Assembly (NCBI GenBank): GCA_965116885.1
Contig: OZ220741.1
Span: 2,016,001 to 2,080,000, forward strand
Source: Candidatus Latescibacterota bacterium
GTDB lineage: Bacteria; Latescibacterota; UBA2968
Direction of reading: 5' to 3'
DNA: 64,000 nucleotides
Position 1 is the stretch's first letter. Each line of letters opens with the position of its first letter. Below are positions 40,539 through 49,111 of the stretch, in pieces. The notes under the pieces are model-generated. The model was given only the letters and a program-made list of their open reading frames with translations, had not been told where the DNA came from and did not search any database. The translations under genes and the position numbers were made by a program.

Positions 40539-41906
40539 TCATGCATTGGGCAATTCTGTCCGCAATGCGAATTTTTCTTCGGGCGTTCCCGCGCCTTTTA
40601 ATACTTCCAGATACGCTTTGTGCAGTCGCTGTGCTTCGGCCATGTTTTGCTGGTTATACACGTTGTTCTTTTGCGCGAGGTCTGTTTGGAGGTTGTATAG
40701 TTCCGCTGGCCAGTTGGGTCCGCGATAGTGCAAGGTCCAGTTGCCGTCTGTGATGCTGGAACACACGCTGCGGTCTTCGCGCACGGGCAGGGTTGCCGAT
40801 GTGACGGCGACTTTTCGTTGTTCTTCTGTTTTTTCGCCTTTTAAGATGGGGGCGACGGATATCCCGTGCAGTCCATCGGGTTTTTTTATGCCTGCAAGGT
40901 CGAGTATTGTGGGCATGAAATCGACGGGTTGTGTTAAAACTTTTGTGCGTTTTCCCGCTGCGTTGCTGCCTGGTACATAGCCCATGAAAGCTGTGTGGGA
41001 TACTTCTTCGTAATAGGGCCAGTCGCCATCTGGTCCCTGTCCGCTTTTGCCAATGCGCCCGTGATCGCCGATGTAGTGTCCGTGGTCAGACATGAAGATT
41101 ACGGCTGTGTCTTCCCAGAGATTCAGGTTTTCTACTTTTTCCAACAGGTGTCCGACCCAGGTGTCCATGAGTGTGACTTCACCTGCGTATAGTGCGCGCG
41201 TGTGTTTGATTTCTTCTGCGCTCAGGTAATCGCAGTAGTCGTAAATGGGATGGTCGATGACTTCGCCTGTGTATCCGGGGTTGTACATATTGACGTAATG
41301 CGCGGGGGGGTCCCACGGTTCGTGGGGGTCAAAGGTGTCGATGTAGAGGAAGAATTTTTCGTGGGTGTGATTTGCTTCCAGCCAGTCTGCGGCGCGTTGC
41401 ATGGTGCGGGCGACAAAGGTGTCGCGTTCTGTTTCCCAGTGTGCTGCGCGCCAGCGATAGTGATATTGTTGCATGCGCTCAGGTGTGCGAATTTTTTCGG
41501 GGACTGATTCGAAGGGGACGGGTACATCGTCTGTGATTGAGCGGTCGCCTTCTTGCCCGCGAATCCATTCCCAGCCCAAAAATCCGCGGTCAAATTGATG
41601 TCCGTCTCTTACCAGGTGCGGTGTATCGCATAAGAGCATGGTGACATACCCCGCGTCTGTGAGGAGTTCGGATAAGATGATTTCATCTTCGGGGAGCGGT
41701 GTCCAGCCGCGAAAGGGAAATGTCAACCTGCCGGTCATCATGTCTGTGCGCGTGGGTATTGTTGGGAACGATGCCTGATACGCGCGGTCAAAGACCATGC
41801 AGCGTTTGGAGAATGCGTCTATATGCGGTGTGCGGATCCATGTATTTCCGTGACAGCCCAGGTGATCGTAACGCAGGGTGTCGGACATTACGACAATGAT
41901 GTTCAT
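40539..41906 (-). CDS. Sulfatase-like hydrolase (alkaline phosphatase superfamily) with Thr at the nucleophile position
   Basis: NIIVVMSDTLRYDH; SFPTIPTRTDMMTG; FDPHEPW; SDHG; ELYNL..D. Confidence 0.88.
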   Translation of the reverse strand: MNIIVVMSDTLRYDHLGCHGNTWIRTPHIDAFSKRCMVFDRAYQASFPTIPTRTDMMTGRLTFPFRGWTPLPEDEIILSELLTDAGYVTMLLCDTPHLVRDGHQFDRGFLGWEWIRGQEGDRSITDDVPVPFESVPEKIRTPERMQQYHYRWRAAHWETERDTFVARTMQRAADWLEANHTHEKFFLYIDTFDPHEPWDPPAHYVNMYNPGYTGEVIDHPIYDYCDYLSAEEIKHTRALYAGEVTLMDTWVGHLLEKVENLNLWEDTAVIFMSDHGHYIGDHGRIGKSGQGPDGDWPYYEEVSHTAFMGYVPGSNAAGKRTKVLTQPVDFMPTILDLAGIKKPDGLHGISVAPILKGEKTEEQRKVAVTSATLPVREDRSVCSSITDGNWTLHYRGPNWPAELYNLQTDLAQKNNVYNQQNMAEAQRLHKAYLEVLKGAGTPEEKFALRTELPNA

Positions 41907-42085
41907 GTGTGACCCTCCAAAAAAGGTTTCTGAGTGCTGAGAATTGAGCTTGGGTAAAATAATTCCTTTTTTTAATTCTGCAACACGAACGCCAGATGGT
42001 TCAAAATGGGGTTGCGGTTTGTATATTTTTTTATCTATGTTTTTGAGGGTGAATATTTACGATCACACGCATTTGGGAGGAGATG

Positions 42086-42970
42086 ATGGATTCTATTTAT
42101 GGGATTGTGCCGCCAGTGGTGACGCCGTTTCGGGAGGATGACTCGCTTGATGAGGGGGCGTTTCGTGCGGATATTCAGTATATGATTGAGACGGCGAAGG
42201 TGCATGGGTTGGCGGTGACGGGGAGTACGGGCGAGGGGCATACGCTCAGAGATGATGAGGTGAGGCAGTTGACGCAATGGGCCGTGGAGGAAGCCGATGG
42301 GCGAGTGCCTGTGATTACGGGGATTATTACGGACAGTACGAAGTCGGCAATTGAGCGCGGGAAGGCTGTGGCCGATTTGGGTCCGGTGGCGTTGCAGGTG
42401 ACGCCGGTGCATTATTTGTTTCGGCCAGACGATGATGCGATGGTCAGGCATTTTGAGGCGTTGTGTGAGGGGACGGGGTTGCCGGTGATGATTTACAATG
42501 TGGTGCCGTGGACGTATTTGTCGCCGGAGTTGTTGACGCGGATTATTGACGAGGTGGAGGGTGTGGTGGGGGTGAAGCAGAGTGCGGGAGATATGAAGTT
42601 GCTGGCTGATTTGTTGTTGATGGCCGGAGATCGAGCGCGGATTATGACTGCGGTAGATGCGTTGTTGTATCCGTCATTTGTTTTGGGTGCACACGGTGCG
42701 ATTGCGGCGATTTTGACGGCGGTGCCCGAGTTGTGTGTGGCGGTGTGGGATGCGTGTCGTGCAGGTGATCATAAAAAGGCGTTGGATTTACACGAGAAGT
42801 TGCTGCCGATTTGGAATGCGATTTTTGATGATAATTTGCCCGCAAATACCAAGTATGCGATGAAGCTACAGGGGCGCGATGGGGGTGTGCCGCGCCCGCC
42901 AATGCCACCGTCGTCTGCCGAGCAGGAGGGGCAGGTTCAGGCGGCATTGGAGAATGCAGGTGTGGTTTAA
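42086..42970 (+). CDS. Dihydrodipicolinate synthase family aldolase/dehydratase
   Basis: PPVVTPF; GSTGEG; IYNV; GVKQSAGD (Schiff-base Lys). Confidence 0.92.
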   Translation: MDSIYGIVPPVVTPFREDDSLDEGAFRADIQYMIETAKVHGLAVTGSTGEGHTLRDDEVRQLTQWAVEEADGRVPVITGIITDSTKSAIERGKAVADLGPVALQVTPVHYLFRPDDDAMVRHFEALCEGTGLPVMIYNVVPWTYLSPELLTRIIDEVEGVVGVKQSAGDMKLLADLLLMAGDRARIMTAVDALLYPSFVLGAHGAIAAILTAVPELCVAVWDACRAGDHKKALDLHEKLLPIWNAIFDDNLPANTKYAMKLQGRDGGVPRPPMPPSSAEQEGQVQAALENAGVV

Positions 42971-44343
42971 TCTTTGGACTTCATCCGGATTGGCATTAAT
43001 AATGCCAGCCATTCCGCATTCAGAGGCGTGCGCAAGATGATCGCTTTTCCCTGTTCTCTAAATTCCATTGTGATTTCATCGCTGTCTTCAATATCCAGCG
43101 CATGCAGGACCTGTTTTAGATACGCGAAGTTCACGGCGAACCTGAGTGTGTCTTCTGATGGTGTTTCAAATTTGGCATTGAGGGGGACCTGAAATATCCA
43201 ATCCGCAATGCCTCCTGGCGAGTCGTTATCTTTCGCGTCGTGGAGATATTGGAATTTGCCATTGTCTTCTCGAGCATATCCCGTATCTCGGGATGTGAGA
43301 AAGGTTATGGTTTGGGTCAGTGGCGAGAGGTGTAGATCTACCCGGGGGCGATATTGCCAGGTATCTGATTCTGGATGCCGCGCTTCCATGAAGTCTTGTA
43401 GTAAGTTCAGGGCGTGTGCTAGAAGAGCCGAGGGGATGGAAACGCGCATTGAGGGATCTTCTTGTGGGATGACCTGTTCGTATTTGACATAAGGACCTTC
43501 GATCAGGGGTACCTGAAGGGTTGTGCCGTTGCTCTGGATTTCTGCGGTCTCTTCCGCAATTTTCAATGTGGCCTGTTCGGGGAGTTGGATGTCTGACCAG
43601 GGTCCGAGGACAATGGGTGCGGCCAATTCCGAGAGGCTTTGCAATGTGCGAATGATCATGATATGTCCGTTGGTCGCAGTCGCGCGACCGCCTGTGTCGA
43701 GACATACGCCCTGCAAGATCGGGCGTTTTTCATCGTCGCTTACAAAACCAATTACTTTTTTGAGCGCGTCCATGTCCGCGCGGTCCAGTTCAGTTGTTTG
43801 TGTTTGAATATCCGACATTTTGTGTAGCTCTCCTTTTAATTTGAGACGCGCACGCCTCAGGCGCCCGCGCACGGTTTCTACCGTGAGGTTCAGGAGGTCG
43901 GCTGTTTCCGCGTAAGAATACCCTTTGAAATAGTGGTGGGCGATTACCTGGCGATGTTCAGCCGATAGGATGCGTAGCGCGGCTCGTACAACATGTTTGA
44001 TTTCTTCTTCTGTGTGCGCTGCAGGTTCTGGATAAAATGTTTCTTCCAGTCGCAATTGCACGGCTCGACGGCGATGATGGGAGTTGACGGCGTTGCGTAC
44101 GATGCTGTGTAACCAGGGTCTAAATCGGTCGGGTTTGCGAAGTTGATGCAGATTTTCGTACGCTTTGATAAATACGATTTGGACCAGGTCTTCTACGTCG
44201 TCAACCAATCGCACAGATTGGGCAATTTGGGCATACACATATCGCGAATAGCGTTGCACCAGAACTGCGAATGCTTTGCGGTCGCCGTCCAGAATTCTGG
44301 CGATGAGCGCGCTGTCTTCAATGTGTTCCACGAATTGCTCCAA
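42967..44343 (-). CDS. ECF sigma-70 factor fused to DNA polymerase III beta-clamp domains II+III
   Basis: aa 1-172 are sigma regions 2 and 4 (DDVEDLVQIVFIKAY..FRPWLHSIVRN; GYSYAETADLLNLTVETVRGRLRRAR). aa ~190-455 carry DnaN motifs (VSDDEKRPILQGV, ATNGH, LIEGPYVKYEQVIP, FAVNFAYL, LLMPIRM). Confidence 0.88.
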   Translation of the reverse strand: MEQFVEHIEDSALIARILDGDRKAFAVLVQRYSRYVYAQIAQSVRLVDDVEDLVQIVFIKAYENLHQLRKPDRFRPWLHSIVRNAVNSHHRRRAVQLRLEETFYPEPAAHTEEEIKHVVRAALRILSAEHRQVIAHHYFKGYSYAETADLLNLTVETVRGRLRRARLKLKGELHKMSDIQTQTTELDRADMDALKKVIGFVSDDEKRPILQGVCLDTGGRATATNGHIMIIRTLQSLSELAAPIVLGPWSDIQLPEQATLKIAEETAEIQSNGTTLQVPLIEGPYVKYEQVIPQEDPSMRVSIPSALLAHALNLLQDFMEARHPESDTWQYRPRVDLHLSPLTQTITFLTSRDTGYAREDNGKFQYLHDAKDNDSPGGIADWIFQVPLNAKFETPSEDTLRFAVNFAYLKQVLHALDIEDSDEITMEFREQGKAIILRTPLNAEWLALLMPIRMKSKD

Positions 44344-44374
44344 GAGAAATCAATCCACGCGTGTTTAAATAAAA

Positions 44375-44400
44375 GACGAGTCTGTATCCCGAAAGTGTCG
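44375..44400 (-). promoter_or_regulatory. Candidate ECF-type promoter of the sigma-clamp gene
   Basis: Minus strand CGACAC-16 nt-CGTC, between the upstream terminator and the start codon. Confidence 0.4.
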
Positions 44401-44409
44401 TATGGATAT

Positions 44410-44441
44410 AAAAAAAGCCCCGGATTGTTCCGAGGCTTTTT
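44410..44441. terminator. Intrinsic terminator of the PhyH gene at 44456
   Basis: Minus strand AAAAAGCCTCGGA-ACAA-TCCGGGGCTTTTTTT. Confidence 0.85.
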
Positions 44442-44455
44442 GATTTTGGGGACTT

Positions 44456-45274
44456 TTAAGCATTGGGACACTTAAAGTCCAGGCCGTCCATGATGACTTT
44501 GATCTGATCGGATGGTTTAAAATAATCTGTCGCCGTATATTTTTCGCCCAGGTCGCCCATTAACCGACGGCGGCGAGGTGTCATGCGGGATAGCACTTCT
44601 TCGGGACATTTTTCATAATCGTAGGGCCTGCACCACATTTGTCCATACCGGAAGGTGATGCTGCGCCGCACGACGTCTGTGTGATTTGGTGCGACGGCGT
44701 GCCACATGGTGTTGGGGAAGATCGCGCAATCTCCCGCTTCGGCAATGAGTTGTATTGCACCGGGCGGTGTTTCATTGCGGGATCCTTTGGGCATTGGGCG
44801 GCGATGACTGCCGGGTACCAGACAGAAGTTTGCACAATTTTCGTGTGGAATATCGGTGAGGAAGAACTGTATTTTGAAGTTTAATGGCAGACTGTCTGGC
44901 GTGACCCGAATTTGTGCCAGTGAGCGTCCGGCATCGGTGTGCCAGCCGATCAAGTTATCGGATTTGTCATTTGGATAGCGTACGTAAATTTGCGATCCCA
45001 TGATCTGGATATAAGGTCCCATCAGGTCGAGGATGACGCCAAATAAGTTGGGGTGGTCCATTAATCCGTCGATCCGATTCGTTCGGAAGAGCGTTTGGAT
45101 GATGGTATAGACGCCTTTTTCGAGTACTTTGGGATATTTGGCTTCGTACTTCGCGATTACTTCATTGGCCGCGTCGAGATATTCCGCTGCTTCGTCTTTG
45201 GGAATTACATTTTTAAGATGTAAATATCCCTGTTCCTGCCACTGTTGCCGCATGGATTTGCTCAAGTGGTTCAT
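44456..45274 (-). CDS. PhyH family dioxygenase
   Basis: QGYLHL; WHTD; LVPGSH; AGD..WH. Confidence 0.92.
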   Translation of the reverse strand: MNHLSKSMRQQWQEQGYLHLKNVIPKDEAAEYLDAANEVIAKYEAKYPKVLEKGVYTIIQTLFRTNRIDGLMDHPNLFGVILDLMGPYIQIMGSQIYVRYPNDKSDNLIGWHTDAGRSLAQIRVTPDSLPLNFKIQFFLTDIPHENCANFCLVPGSHRRPMPKGSRNETPPGAIQLIAEAGDCAIFPNTMWHAVAPNHTDVVRRSITFRYGQMWCRPYDYEKCPEEVLSRMTPRRRRLMGDLGEKYTATDYFKPSDQIKVIMDGLDFKCPNA

Positions 45275-45387
45275 GTCAAAGCTCCTGTTTTTTGAATGTT
45301 GTTTTAGACCTTAGCCCTTGCCTGATGGTGTATAATGCGATATTTTCTCGATGAAACTATCGGAAAACAATATAAAAGGAGGCTTTT

Positions 45388-45708
45388 ATGCTCGTGTTGA
45401 CAACCCCCAATATTGAAGGGAAAACTATTGATAGCTATCAGGGCATTGTGACGGGTGAAGCTATTTTGGGTGCCAATTTTTTTAAGGATATCTTTGCGAG
45501 TCTCCGCGATATTGTCGGCGGGCGTTCAGCCGCGTATGAGTCAGAACTCCGCAGAGCCAAAGATCTCGCCATTGAGGAAATGGTCGAACAGGCACGCGGT
45601 ATGGGCGCCAATGCCGTCATTGGCGTGGATCTCGACTACGATACGGTTGGCGAGGGCAGTATGCTTATGGTCAGTGCCAGTGGCACGGCTGTTACTTATC
45701 GGAATTGA
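45388..45708 (+). CDS. ybjQ: YbjQ/UPF0145 family protein
   Basis: [59 protein letters not shown]. Confidence 0.95.
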
Positions 45709-46584
45709 GACGTTCGTTATTTTGTATTGTGTTTTGGAAAATTTCGATTCTTTCACCACGGTTTGCGATTCGTAAATGGATCCGCTTCGGAGTGCGCCCG
45801 GCCAGGGCATTCTCACGGGTACGGCTTCCACGCGCGGGATGTTGGTCGGTTCGCCGCGCACGATTGTTTCATTGAACAAATCCCAGTTGTTCAGGCCCGA
45901 TAGGGGATATGCATCGATCGCGCAGTATTGAAATAGGAGCAGTCGGCGGGGTTTGTCGGATGTATTGGATACTGATCCGTGTAGCATGCGCACGTGATGG
46001 ATTGTGATGCCGCCTGCTTTTACCATTACGGGCACGGCGCCTTTGTCGCTAAAGGTCGAGTCGGTTACGGCGCCGCAGAAATGGCCGTCGAGGTGATGGT
46101 CGTAAATTGGCCCTTTGTGTGAGCCGGGAATGACGAGCAAGGGGCCGTTTTCTTCTGTCATGTCGTCGAGTACTATGCCCACGGCGAGCAAGTCGTCGTT
46201 GCTATGGGGATAAAATGCCCAGTCCTGATGCCACTCGACCGGGCTGCCGTAGCCGGGTTGTTTCATGTTGAGCTTGTTGCCATTGCACCGCAGGCCGTAT
46301 CCGATCAATTGCGATACGATTCCCAAAATTTTCTCGTGATGCAGGGTCTTGCGATATACTTCATGTAGCAAAATCGGACTTTTTAAGCGTCTCAGTTTTG
46401 GGTTTTCGGGTGTGTGTCCGGGTTCGAGGTCGAATGCTTCGGTGTGATCGGTGACCTCCCGCGATTTTTCCACATATTCATCGGTTATCCGCCGCAGGTC
46501 GTTGACTTCGTCTTCACTGAGCACGTTCTCCACACCGAGATATCCGTGTTCGTGGTAAAACGCAATTTGTTCTTGAGTGAGCAT
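45541..46584 (-). CDS. PhyH family dioxygenase (C-terminal ~58 aa probably stop-loss read-through)
   Basis: [21 protein letters not shown]. The ORF overlaps ybjQ by 168 nt. Confidence 0.88.
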
Positions 46585-46600
46585 GGGTTACTCCTTCTTT

Positions 46601-48073
46601 TTATGGATGTCGGTATTTGTTTCCAAATTTTTCGCGCAGTAAGACCGCGCCTTCTGCACGGTCGGTTTCTGCAAGGCGGTCGCAATAGTCTTCGAAAGCT
46701 CCCCAGGTGTGCATTGGTCCGCCTTCTTGCATGACTGTCCAGAGGGGGTCGTTGTCGTAGGGCCGCGGCATGGTTTCCATCATGTGGTCGTGCCAGTTCA
46801 TCAGCCGATACGCAGCCTCGCGGCATATATCGGGATTTTCAGCGGCTACGTCGCGCATTTCATAGGGGTCGTCTGATAGATTAAATAATAATTCGCGCGG
46901 GTAAAGTCGATATCCGTCGTGATAGGTGCGGATGTAGATCCAGTCGTCAAAGCGGACAGCCCGCTGACATACATGCGCGCACTGGCTCAAGATCAATTCG
47001 CTGCGCCCGGCATCTGCGCCTTCGGTAATGACCGGGGCATAACTTTCGCCATCCCACAACGCCTGTTTTTGCCCGCATAGAAGATCGGATAGTGTGGGCG
47101 CTAAATCAATATTGTAATGCAGGCCCTCGTCTGTGATTCCAGACTGCCCGCCGGGCCATTTTACGATCATAGGAATATGGCAGGTCGCCTGATCGGCTGT
47201 TCCGTGTTCGCCGTATATGCCGAGTTCGCCCATGTTTTCGCCGTGATCTGCGCTGATGATGATCGCGGTGTCGTCCAGTACGCCTTTGTTTTCTAATATT
47301 TCCACAATGATGGCAATTTGATCATCTACGTACCGGATCGCGGTGTCATATCCATCGATCATCCGTCGCAGGTCGTCCATGTTGTCCAGGCGCCCGGGGT
47401 GCCGGGGAAAGCGCGGATTGGGGCGGTCGTTCCACATCATAATGTCCTGCGCGGTGTGGGGACCGACGAGTTTTTTGTGTTCTTCCAGTAATTCGGGGGT
47501 CAGCCAGTCCGGCAGGGGGTCATCGGCAAAGGGTTCGCCGTATTCCGCTGGCGCGCGATAGGGTGTGTGTACATCCCAGTAGTTGATGTGTAAAAACCAT
47601 TTGTCGTCCGAGGCATTGTCATTTAGCCACTTTTCGACTACAGGTGTTACTTCTTCGGCTGATTCCATGCCGCCTTTGCCGGTGTTGTGTATTTCGTTGA
47701 AGCCCGCGTAAAAATGCCACGCGGCATGCCGCTGTCCAAAGGGGCTGATCATGGATGTTTTAAAGCCCTGACGTTGCAGGAATCCGGCCAGTCCCTCGTT
47801 TGCCAGTCGATCTCGAAATCCGCGGTTTGGTCCATTTATGCGCCGTTCTGACGCTGTGCCGCCGTGCCCTACGACGCCCGAATGAATGCCGAATTGCCCG
47901 GAGTAAAATGCCGTGCGCGATGGCAAGCAGGGTGCGTCTGTTGTATAGACCTGGTTAAATCGAATGCCTTCGGCTGCAATTTTGTCGATTGTAGGCGATG
48001 TGTTGCGGTGATATCCGTAACAGCCGAGGTGTGTGGGATTTAAGGCGTCGAGATCGAGGTACAGGATGCGCAT
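46601..48073 (-). CDS. Cys-type sulfatase
   Basis: TPTIDKIA; CLPSR formylglycine motif; ADHGE; HIPMIVKWPG; ELLFNL..DPYE. Confidence 0.93.
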   Translation of the reverse strand: MRILYLDLDALNPTHLGCYGYHRNTSPTIDKIAAEGIRFNQVYTTDAPCLPSRTAFYSGQFGIHSGVVGHGGTASERRINGPNRGFRDRLANEGLAGFLQRQGFKTSMISPFGQRHAAWHFYAGFNEIHNTGKGGMESAEEVTPVVEKWLNDNASDDKWFLHINYWDVHTPYRAPAEYGEPFADDPLPDWLTPELLEEHKKLVGPHTAQDIMMWNDRPNPRFPRHPGRLDNMDDLRRMIDGYDTAIRYVDDQIAIIVEILENKGVLDDTAIIISADHGENMGELGIYGEHGTADQATCHIPMIVKWPGGQSGITDEGLHYNIDLAPTLSDLLCGQKQALWDGESYAPVITEGADAGRSELILSQCAHVCQRAVRFDDWIYIRTYHDGYRLYPRELLFNLSDDPYEMRDVAAENPDICREAAYRLMNWHDHMMETMPRPYDNDPLWTVMQEGGPMHTWGAFEDYCDRLAETDRAEGAVLLREKFGNKYRHP

Positions 48074-48153
48074 AGATGTTCCTTTTCTGTTTTGGTTAGT
48101 TTAAGGGATAATTTACCTTTAAAATCGTTTCTTAGCAAGTTTATCAGTGGTCT

Positions 48154-48233
48154 GTAGGGGACGGCCCCTGTGCCGTCCCGCACGACCACCTGTGTCTGAC
48201 CTTCTGCGGGCGACCACAGGGGGTCGCCCCTAC
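48154..48233. repeat. GTAG-family REP doublet, copy 3 (units in the opposite order)
   Basis: GTAGGGGACGGCCCCTGTGCCGTCCCG ... CGGGCGACCACAGGGGGTCGCCCCTAC. Confidence 0.85.
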
Positions 48234-48307
48234 AAAACGGATTAACTTGACGGATCGGCCCGTTGACATTATCCTGCATCGCACAAACAATAGCGAGGAG
48301 GCCGCAG

Positions 48308-49111
48308 ATGATAGAGCCGACAATTTCTCTTTCACAGGAACAAATTCATTCATTTCACGAGGATGGATTCCTCGTTCTCAATGCGATTACCACGGAGGAG
48401 GAGGTGGAACAGCTTCGGGAAATTTACGATCGGCTTTTTTCGGATCGCACGGGGTGGGATCAGGGGAGTCAGTTTGATCTGGCGGGTACCGATGAGGATG
48501 ATCAACCACGCCTTCCGCAAATGCTCGGTCCCAGCCGTTTTGCGCCCGAGTTGAAGGATACGCTCTATCTGGCTAATGCGCGGGCGATTGCGCGGCAGTT
48601 GCTGGGTTCTGATATGCTCGATAGGAATGGCGAACATATGATTTACAAGCCGCCGCGTATTGGTGCGGCAACGCCGTGGCATCAGGATCAGGCGTATCAC
48701 GATCCTGCGATGGCGTATAAAGGTGTAAATTTCTGGATGCCGCTGGACGATGCGACGGTTGAGTCGGGTTGTTTGCAGTTTATTCCGGGTAGCCACAAGC
48801 TCGATGTTTTGCCGCATCACAGCATTAACCGGGATCCGCGCATTCACGGTCTTGAGGTTGATGATCCCGAACAGTATGCTGAACGGGCAGTTCCCTGTCC
48901 TGTTGCGGCTGGTGGGGCTTCGCTTCACGCGTGTTATATGCTGCATTACGCAGAGCCAAATCGCACAGATGTTCCGCGGAGGGCTTATACGCTTACGTTC
49001 AGGACGCCACCCCAGACGCGCGATAAACCCGTTGATGCATATTGGCAAAAGAACAAACAGACGGCGCGGCAAACAAGGGCGAATGCGTATCAAACAAGGG
49101 GTTCTATGTAG
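48308..49111 (+). CDS. PhyH family dioxygenase
   Basis: FHEDGFL; PWHQD; WMPLDD; FIPGSH; LHYA; GAGGAGG RBS. Confidence 0.93.
   Translation: MIEPTISLSQEQIHSFHEDGFLVLNAITTEEEVEQLREIYDRLFSDRTGWDQGSQFDLAGTDEDDQPRLPQMLGPSRFAPELKDTLYLANARAIARQLLGSDMLDRNGEHMIYKPPRIGAATPWHQDQAYHDPAMAYKGVNFWMPLDDATVESGCLQFIPGSHKLDVLPHHSINRDPRIHGLEVDDPEQYAERAVPCPVAAGGASLHACYMLHYAEPNRTDVPRRAYTLTFRTPPQTRDKPVDAYWQKNKQTARQTRANAYQTRGSM

Follow-up and report, generated by a model that had tools for sequence, protein, structure and literature searches.

In the window, i.e. the complete 64,000-nucleotide stretch of Latescibacterota DNA that was analysed, a single unbroken ORF of 458 aa was found on the minus strand (42967..44343, from a TTG), in agreement with the original prediction. 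The true start is likely the GTG at 44331, which gives 454 aa, since the database homologues have this length. The N-terminal part proved to be the complete ECF sigma factor that had been proposed: the Pfam regions Sigma70_r2 (44062..44262, minus strand, residues 28-94) and r4 (43834..43989, minus strand, residues 119-170; r4_2 match at 119-169) both exceeded their cut-offs, and TIGR02937 scored 92.6 bits against a cut-off of 42.9. Regions 2 and 4 are connected by a short linker and region 3 is absent, which is the arrangement of ECF (group 4) sigma factors. The C-terminal extension comprises 283 aa, where more than 50 aa define an ECF with extension. The other mark of these proteins, the absence of a conserved neighbouring anti-sigma, was observed as well: neither an anti-sigma nor any other neighbour was conserved across families among 48 loci, and the neighbourhood offered no functional clue.

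The extension consists of a DnaN domain II-like part (43465..43818, minus strand, approximately residues 176-293), in which a loop takes the place of the second helix, and a domain III-like part (42982..43464, minus strand, approximately residues 294-454) with family-specific inserts and the LMPIR end. All five clamp motifs quoted in the original prediction were found in the protein. The fusion is not an assembly artefact, as no stop was met at the junction in any of the 56 homologous loci examined. The sigma/clamp junction was also spanned by one contig from a DNA run and one from an RNA library. Parts of the ORF were covered by RNA-library contigs, a coverage that is uninformative on expression level, strand and start. 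As anticipated, a separate canonical dnaN is present elsewhere in the genome, in a dnaN-recF pair.

The C-terminal part alone stayed under the Pfam cut-offs (DNA_pol3_beta_2, E 0.034; DNA_pol3_beta_3, E 0.0097). Nevertheless, its clamp fold was confirmed in three ways: six of its seven PDB sequence matches were beta clamps, the family profile matched a beta clamp with E 2.6e-13, and the AlphaFold2 model of this part (pLDDT 88.1, pTM 0.87) superimposed on E. coli beta residues 121-366 with Z ~22 and an rmsd of ~2.8 Å over ~233 residues. Against beta clamps generally, Z was 20-23. The alignment to residues 121-366 only also bears out that domain I is missing; thus, the fusion shares with DnaN (PF00712/PF02767/PF02768) the fold of domains II and III, and differs from it in lacking the three domains per chain. 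The fusion clamp parts formed a clade apart from the host's DnaN in a quick IQ-TREE tree, and dN/dS values of 0.14-0.38 in 10 pairs showed purifying selection on the clamp part. In the ESM Atlas, the best feature scores (0.84) fell on two-domain DnaN-like clusters, which was taken as a lead only.

The fusion module was detected in 66 of 168 genomes of the phylum and also in PVC-group records; kin are included in all locus and family counts given here, which are not independent. A metagenome scan for a distant clade yielded 80 loci with matches over the sigma part only, which were reused as ECF controls. Among 67 scanned proteins, 17 had neither a sigma part nor a full DnaN (clamp-only representatives). 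Of seven stand-alone clamp proteins looked up, six were on contigs <2 kb and two clustered with members of 457-466 aa, and for this reason they were not counted in favour of a split gene. Literature searches returned no description of a sigma-DnaN fusion and nothing on MerR-DnaN fusions.

The original prediction had considered a trimeric ring sliding along DNA, similar to PCNA or gp45, as a tether for the sigma factor, as in T4 late transcription. Two clamp domains per chain do correspond to PCNA geometry, sigma-less subunits could come from the internal start described below, and the title of a preprint (10.1101/2025.01.04.631326) states that phage Mu late transcription uses a clamp. However, the second helix of domain II was coil or lost in both AlphaFold2 models (clamp part and full length). 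In the segment of this helix, the content changes from 1.8 K/R and 0.6 D/E in DnaN to 0.8 and 1.9 in the family, and in the helix-1/loop segment of domain III from 4.1 K/R and 2.7 D/E to 3.2 and 5.5. Two of four hand-set inner-ring segments are thereby switched from basic to acidic, while the charge of the other two ranges is unchanged; the two helices per domain and the basic inner ring of DnaN were accordingly not found. Arg269 is retained in just 4% of the family. The 294-300 hairpin of E. coli, with a median of 7 residues in DnaN, is expanded to ~24 in the family, corresponding in the window protein to a ~25-residue insert (DxGY...W; 43201..43287, minus strand) at the ring-closing edge, and in domain III the insertions lie next to the strand and the helix by which DnaN rings are closed. 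With these ring features lost, a PCNA-like trimer is very unlikely.

The peptide pocket was evaluated at the 18 residues of subsites I and II listed in PMC11139829. In comparison with E. coli, the window protein has 11 identical residues, among them His175, Met362 and Arg365, three conservative replacements and four changes (R176I, P242V, R246Q, V344G), so that the claim of a retained pocket holds for most of it and not for the whole. The predicted conservation among homologues was borne out. On 48 sequences dereplicated at 70%, it amounted to 0.65 in the pocket vs 0.41 in the rest of the domain (18 vs 220 positions; Mann-Whitney p ~1e-6), and DnaN-consensus residues were retained at 71% of the pocket vs 45% of other DnaN-conserved positions, in a comparison where several of the pocket residues also serve the structure and the DnaN sequences were chosen by similarity to the family. 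From these alignments, the pocket positions are under selective conservation. Within the family, only 38% of the members still have His175 and 50% have Pro242, which indicates a drift in pocket specificity, possibly away from the ligands of real clamps.

The identity of these 11 residues would also suit a sensor or brake coupled to replication, in which the pocket binds host Pol III, TLS polymerases, MutS/L or Hda off the clamp, reports replication stress and, once amplified, titrates these partners and slows replication. According to the part of PMC11139829 consulted, the beta clamp retains strong binding to the delta subunit as a monomer. Nonetheless, this alternative has a small chance of being correct: His175 and Pro242 are often replaced, as given above, and replication and repair genes are neither conserved neighbours nor carriers of the promoter. 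Moreover, the gene is broken in at least five genomes (G060, G078, G085, G107 and G130), which fits a dispensable defence function better than replication coupling.

At the junction of both parts, an in-frame Shine-Dalgarno sequence (AAGGAG) precedes the ATG of Met176 (43816..43835, minus strand), the predicted start of a 283-aa clamp-only product. The junction Met was present in 56 of 56 loci, and in all of them the SD pairing was -8.1 or stronger, while even -6 was reached by only 19% of 455 other internal Met. The Glu codon within the SD was GAG in 54/55 cases vs 1047/1931 elsewhere in the same genes. This strict retention suggests that translation probably also yields the clamp domain by itself, as a free short product. 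For the gene in the window, pairing with 16S rRNA is stronger at the internal site than at the 5' start, and the free module is therefore probably in excess. The same SD+Met junction is common to the ECF-TPR, ECF-pentapeptide and ECF-Hsp70-piece fusions of these bacteria; being generic, it backs the existence of two products, not a role as decoy. No conserved internal start is mentioned for known ECFs with extensions in the passages compared.

The junction signals could also be regarded as fossils of an old gene fusion, with the clamp as a passive stabiliser whose pocket binds nothing. Some C-terminal extensions of ECFs are thought to be old sigma/anti-sigma fusions, according to the portion of PMC8999054 consulted, and broken copies are common. 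This explanation is very unlikely, given that the SD and its synonymous G are retained across clamp parts only ~30% identical, that the pocket is selectively conserved and that dN/dS is well below 1.

The linker between the sigma regions carries a motif starting at the near-invariant Gln96 (44035..44058, minus strand), which reads QLRL in the window protein and QLDLL, QLNLL or QPxLL in relatives. Of 47 dereplicated family members, 45 have Gln96, as do all 58 additional proteins with a fused clamp; among 113 other ECFs it was seen in six. The canonical definition of a clamp-binding motif (CBM) fits eight of the 47 linker motifs and does not fit that of the window; the hydrophobic pattern of the motif coincides in part with the 'VSLD' linker that is generic to ECFs. 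In the full-length AlphaFold2 model the motif was undocked, with pLDDT <50 there. Based on its partial likeness to a clamp-binding motif, it is a candidate intramolecular ligand of the pocket.

Upstream of the gene, a conserved ECF-type promoter was identified, with a -35-like element CGACACTTT (44392..44400, minus strand; GGATACYT in other genera) and a -10-like element CGTC (44375..44378, minus strand; CATC, CAAC or CGTC in homologues). It was found at one exact spacing in 25 of 39 loci (0.2 in shuffles) and within +/-1 in 32 of 39 (0.6 in shuffles), so that the bipartite element expected ahead of an ECF's own gene is present in these 32. A perfect hairpin with a U-tail at the end of the upstream PhyH gene (44410..44441, minus strand; fold -18.4 kcal/mol) is likely an intrinsic terminator that isolates the sigma gene. 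A simple scan for sigma-70 promoters and terminators gave nothing above shuffles, and this hairpin escaped it. The -35 is CGACAC in 6/6 loci of the own genus, where the sigma-4 helix reads RGRLRR, and of the GGATAC type in the 22 other scored loci, where the helix reads R/K-SRLQK. This co-change, a single evolutionary event, points to recognition of the promoter by the gene's own sigma. The internal start, the self-directed promoter and the linker Gln motif are features that had been missed by the original prediction.

The conserved promoter is rare elsewhere in the genomes tested. In G000, the gene's own promoter was the top matrix match, the strict own-type pattern occurred once, and nine relaxed upstream matches held one strict site, that of the gene itself; in G042, G106 and G134 the gene's own site was the sole match. 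A looser pattern gave background-level matches in five genomes and a loose own-genus pattern showed no excess over its control, in scans that would miss real targets with degenerate sites. Extra copies were detected in some genera: ahead of DUF5916/CBM9 genes in genus g25 and in G167, of a MacB/FtsX permease in G048 and G052, and of an ABC-2 permease in G164. These second copies would be expected from an ordinary fused anti-sigma or sensor, whose clamp only gates the sigma, whose short form is an excess inhibitor and whose small regulon has degenerate sites, with DUF5916/CBM9 proteins and ABC permeases as possible outputs. The generic internal start agrees with this explanation, and so may the full-length monomer model, whose pTM of 0.70 is somewhat above our estimate for an isolated clamp domain. 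It is still rather improbable, since none of the four DUF5916 genes of G000 has a site and no target common to different families was found. Furthermore, in loci L233 and L234 a stretch similar to the 5' end of the fusion follows the second site and is a relic of a moved or deleted fusion copy.

The proposal of a one-component regulator was supported by the higher conservation of the pocket, the lack of a conserved neighbour and the purifying selection. A self-contained, self-amplifying ECF circuit in one gene, with the logic of TipA, AlbA and ClpC2 transferred to a sigma factor, is considered somewhat probable; its ligand gating, short product and autoregulation are inferred. From this gene the cell would make the complete fusion and, probably in larger amounts, the clamp module by itself. 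In the resting state the clamp module would hold the sigma off, perhaps, though less likely than not, by keeping the Gln motif of the sigma linker within the pocket or close to it. Competition from a ligand that normally docks on the real DnaN pocket, either a CBM-bearing protein or a peptide antibiotic, would free the sigma. The freed sigma would transcribe mainly its own gene, and the additional free pocket domain would soak up the ligand and then damp the loop. A more specific version, a one-gene tripwire and sponge against attack on the clamp, combines a linker-plugged pocket, self-amplification and a ring-less DnaN decoy, and sees the sister ECF fusions as part of a general design; it is rather unlikely. 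According to it, a clamp-targeting antibiotic, toxin or phage protein would displace the clamp-binding-like motif of the sigma, the internal start would flood the cell with the decoy, and the ECF-pentapeptide and ECF-Hsp70-piece fusions with a like junction would be sister modules.

The known systems share parts of this organization. In the sources consulted, ECFs with a C-terminal extension likewise show a complete sigma2-sigma4 core, a long fused domain and their own ECF-type promoter, without a separate anti-sigma nearby. Unlike the extensions described there, the one found here has a DnaN II+III fold, and neither 'clamp' nor 'DnaN' occurs in the main texts on ECF classification or in the portion consulted of one PMC7826278 supplement. 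In comparison with DnaN, most residues of the CBM pocket are identical or conservative in the window protein, whereas domain I and helix 2 of domain II are lacking, the ring edge has inserts, two of four inner-face segments are acidic, and the sequence falls below the Pfam cut-offs and in a separate clade. Precedents for the proposed logic are found in PMC7762955, bioRxiv 10.64898/2026.09.21.753095 and PMC10030653. Mycobacterial ClpC2, which is homologous to part of an essential target of antibiotics, acts both as a sponge and as the sensor for its own expression (PMC10030653). It is a repressor freed from DNA by cyclomarin A, whereas here the release of a sigma is proposed and the sliding clamp would be mimicked. 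TipA (TipAL/TipAS) and AlbA (AlbAL/AlbAS) obtain from one gene a long regulator and a short in-frame ligand-binding product, under a self-directed promoter. A long and a short product and a self-directed promoter are also predicted here from sequence. TipA and AlbA belong to the MerR proteins and bind demonstrated ligands through dedicated drug-binding folds, in contrast to a sigma factor joined to a part-copy of an essential target, and no MerR helix-turn-helix or TipAS-type domain was matched among 12 Pfam families at E up to 1. By analogy, the fusion would resemble TipA and AlbA in logic without being a member of their class.

Bacterial replication centres on the DnaN pocket, at which drugs are also aimed. 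With a sigma factor attached to a copy of this pocket, transcription would be linked in a new way to threats to the replisome or to its state, and one gene with its 26-base promoter constitutes a ready reporter. If the fusion responds to pocket ligands, it could serve as a biosensor for clamp-targeting natural products, and sigma factors would join MerR proteins and repressors as users of the TipA/AlbA/ClpC2 principle. If the tripwire reading is true, the combination of ECF sigma, internal start and target decoy would be a general type of resistance system that has so far gone undescribed in these bacteria, and would point to new DnaN-targeting compounds in sponge communities.

The original prediction of one reading frame joining an ECF sigma factor to a two-domain clamp module was borne out. 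The 458-codon frame runs uninterrupted from a TTG codon on the minus strand (42967-44343), while the homologues, of 454 aa, agree with a GTG start at 44331. Sigma regions 2 (residues 28-94) and 4 (residues 119-170) scored above the Pfam cut-off, giving the complete N-terminal sigma that was foreseen, whereas the expected DNA_pol3_beta_2 and DNA_pol3_beta_3 matches in the remainder were sub-threshold only. The AlphaFold2 model of residues 176-458, built on a 45-sequence alignment, reached a pLDDT of 88.1 and a pTM of 0.87. Against the PDB it retrieved beta clamps only, among the matches listed, with E. coli clamp residues 121-366 aligned at Z ~22 and rmsd ~2.8 A; hhalign against E. coli DnaN II+III gave 95.6%. 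As modelled, the post-sigma part is a clamp fold. The sigma/clamp junction was spanned by one contig from a DNA run and one from an RNA library, and the RNA runs in which part of the region occurs carry sponge-metagenome labels. A separate canonical dnaN, then recF, was found 0.78 Mb away in the same genome, as anticipated. The neighbours (40539-49111) are sulfatases, dioxygenases of the PhyH family and, in convergent orientation, a DHDPS-family gene with a 4-base overlap at the fusion stop codon. Conservation of this context is limited to the genus, and no neighbour gene is conserved across families.

PMC11139829 gives 18 residues for the pocket that binds clamp-binding motifs (CBM). The claim that this pocket is retained held for most of them: in the window 11 are identical and 3 conservative, but 4 are changed (R176I, P242V, R246Q, V344G). 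Family conservation (48 sequences) was 0.65 at 18 pocket positions, a predefined set in which Ser346 replaces Arg246 of that published list, versus 0.41 at 220 others (p ~1e-6). This amounts to selective conservation of the pocket, in line with what had been expected of the homologues, except that His175 is kept in only 38% of the family and Pro242 in 50%; the DnaN comparison set was picked for similarity to the family. That the module senses or titrates host clamp partners through such a pocket is considered quite improbable.

The domain II helix-2 segment, which is coil in both models (clamp part and full length), and the domain III helix-1/loop shift from net basic to net acidic in the family; no charge change was seen in the other two hand-set ring-segment ranges. 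Arg269 is kept in 4% of the family, and the hairpin at E. coli 294-300 grows from ~7 to ~24 residues. These helix, loop and hairpin elements line or close the clamp ring. Their role is partly covered in PMC11139829. The ring features are lost from the fused module, and assembly into a trimeric ring can be given hardly any credence.

Of 47 dereplicated family members, 45 have Gln96 directly after sigma region 2, as do all 58 further clamp-fused proteins; among other ECFs it occurs in 6 of 113. It is also present in 9 of 22 related sigmas in which no clamp domain was detected, 6 of these resembling family members cut short. The linker carrying it may dock in the fused pocket. The motifs QLDLL, QLNLL and QPPLF are similar to the consensus for CBMs, Q-aliphatic-x-L/M-F/L (PMC11139829). 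However, only 8/47 linker motifs fit strictly, the window's QLRLEETF fails the strict definition, the hydrophobic positions overlap with those of the ordinary ECF linker, and residues 90-109 (454-aa numbering) have pLDDT < 50 in the full-length model. The Gln could touch promoter DNA instead.

In 56/56 loci a Met occupies one fixed position after sigma region 4, and the codons ahead of it are AAG GAG, GAG GAG or of the GGA type. With a generic anti-SD this site pairs at -8.1 to -13.3 kcal/mol in every one of the loci, which are related but have clamp parts only ~30% identical between families; -6 was reached by 19% of 455 other internal Met. Within the site, Glu is encoded by GAG in 54/55 cases, a codon that serves for 1047/1931 Glu residues in the remainder of these genes. 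For the window, pairing at the internal site (-8.9) exceeds that at the GTG start (-5.6), and across 39 loci the best 5' start averaged -6.3. Among other ECF fusions of these bacteria, the same signal was observed in those to TPR, pentapeptide-repeat and Hsp70-piece partners, and was absent from an ECF-BFN fusion and from a second long ECF fusion of the window's genome (C1:466197-467471; L227:698-1969), which is 424 aa long, seems to contain a membrane segment and lacks the junction Met. The signal is therefore habitual in this lineage and points to a second product, its role unspecified.

Among these other fusions, the ECF-pentapeptide-repeat genes (L232:3419-4363, L233:1654-2586, L091:2817-3791) carry an in-frame SD and Met immediately ahead of the repeat domain (-8.9 to -13.2). 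Repeats of this kind are gyrase-protecting DNA mimics. L106:1828-2835 joins an ECF sigma to an Hsp70 piece (Pfam positions 410-486, the peptide-binding region) with a junction signal of -13.8; it adjoins an ECF-BFN fusion and a sigma gene of the clamp type that runs off the end of the contig. The signal is also present in the ECF-TPR fusions L034:4185-6089, L034:8003-9715, L231:2-979 and L234:122-1042, and in genome G105 two of these flank the clamp fusion.

Upstream of the gene, GGATACYT, a spacer and CATC/CAAC/CGTC occur at one spacing in 25/39 loci (shuffles 0.2), and within one base of that spacing in 32/39 (shuffles 0.6). In the window's genus a -35-like CGACAC (44400-44395, minus strand) replaces the GGATAC type, the window's CGTC element lying at 44378-44375; a hairpin (44410-44441, minus strand) lies between the gene and the one upstream, setting them apart. 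Along with CGACAC, the sigma-4 helix has changed, reading RGRLRR instead of RSRLQK: one event, but one expected if the fused sigma reads the site.

In the window's genome the fusion's own site is the top matrix match and the only strict own-type match. Ten other genomes gave 15 strict matches versus 12 for a reversed control; 8 of the 15 are the fusion's own promoter, the only match in G042, G106 and G134, while the own sites of G059 and G101 miss the strict pattern. A class-wide search found matches in 76/132 genomes, with second sites present. Among 20 regions fetched, the site stands just before DUF5916/CBM9-type or adjacent genes in 9 from genus g25 and 1 from G167 (L230-L238, L246), before a MacB/FtsX permease in 2 and before an ABC-2 permease in 1; several others are inside reading frames. 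The four DUF5916 genes of the window's genome have no such site. In L233 and L234 the DNA past the second site resembles the fusion's own first codons, seemingly decayed, which points to relics. The regulon looks minimal, though degenerate sites would escape this search; that the module is simply a fused anti-sigma, its small regulon escaping notice, is judged unlikely.

The clamp part is present in 66/168 phylum genomes (E < 1e-25), all within the window's class (132 genomes), and the predicted recurrence of the architecture was confirmed by an in-frame upstream sigma in 56/56 loci read. Most named records of this protein are titled Candidatus Latescibacterota, three being Terrimicrobiaceae, Lentisphaerae and Opitutaceae. 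When 1.84 billion representatives were searched with a profile, 47 matches at E up to 1e-30 came up; 67 scanned of the 150 matches listed comprised 39 with sigma regions, 11 DnaN-like and 17 clamp-only or otherwise fused. In a quick tree, the 41 fused domains group with 5/6 relatives that have no sigma (SH-aLRT 92), and the host's DnaN falls outside this group, which is consistent with a single origin. In proteins P0100 and P0137 the family's clamp domain stands without a sigma and is followed by a C-terminal SEC-C motif; in P0084, likewise sigma-less, it has an N-terminal zinc ribbon. Another protein, P0199 (806 aa), has two tandem DnaN units, possibly a single-chain clamp ring. Clamp-part dN/dS was 0.14-0.38 (10 pairs), and that the junction or module is a fossil is deemed very improbable. 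Broken copies in G060, G085, G107, G130 and G078 indicate that the gene is dispensable. Two of these keep the promoter with the gene internally deleted: in G085, counted among the 66, the deletion joins two short AVN-coding repeats (L051:6482-6916), and in G078 the frame ends just past the Gln motif (L229:2313-2711).

By the features tested, the protein classes as an ECF sigma with a C-terminal extension; it is neither a DnaN nor a TipA-class MerR protein. It may nevertheless work like TipA (PMC7762955), AlbA (bioRxiv 10.64898/2026.09.21.753095) and ClpC2 (PMC10030653). The words 'clamp' and 'DnaN' are absent from the main texts of PMC7826278 and PMC8999054 and from part of one PMC7826278 supplement, whose full group tables could still bear on the matter. 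No description of a sigma-clamp fusion was found in the full-text literature by titles and abstract openings, subscription journals being thinly covered.

What was observed is the architecture, fold, selective pocket conservation, lost ring features, junction signal, promoter and isolation. In the reading proposed, the gene would make two products. The clamp module would inhibit the sigma, a pocket ligand would release it, the sigma would feed back positively on its own gene, and the free module would sequester the ligand. If a sigma acts chiefly on the gene that encodes it, what is useful must be the other product of that gene, hence the sponge reading. Such a self-amplifying circuit is, on balance, probable. 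Its full form is rather doubtful: a linker motif plugging the pocket would be displaced by a clamp-targeting antibiotic, toxin or phage protein, and a ring-less DnaN decoy would be made in excess.
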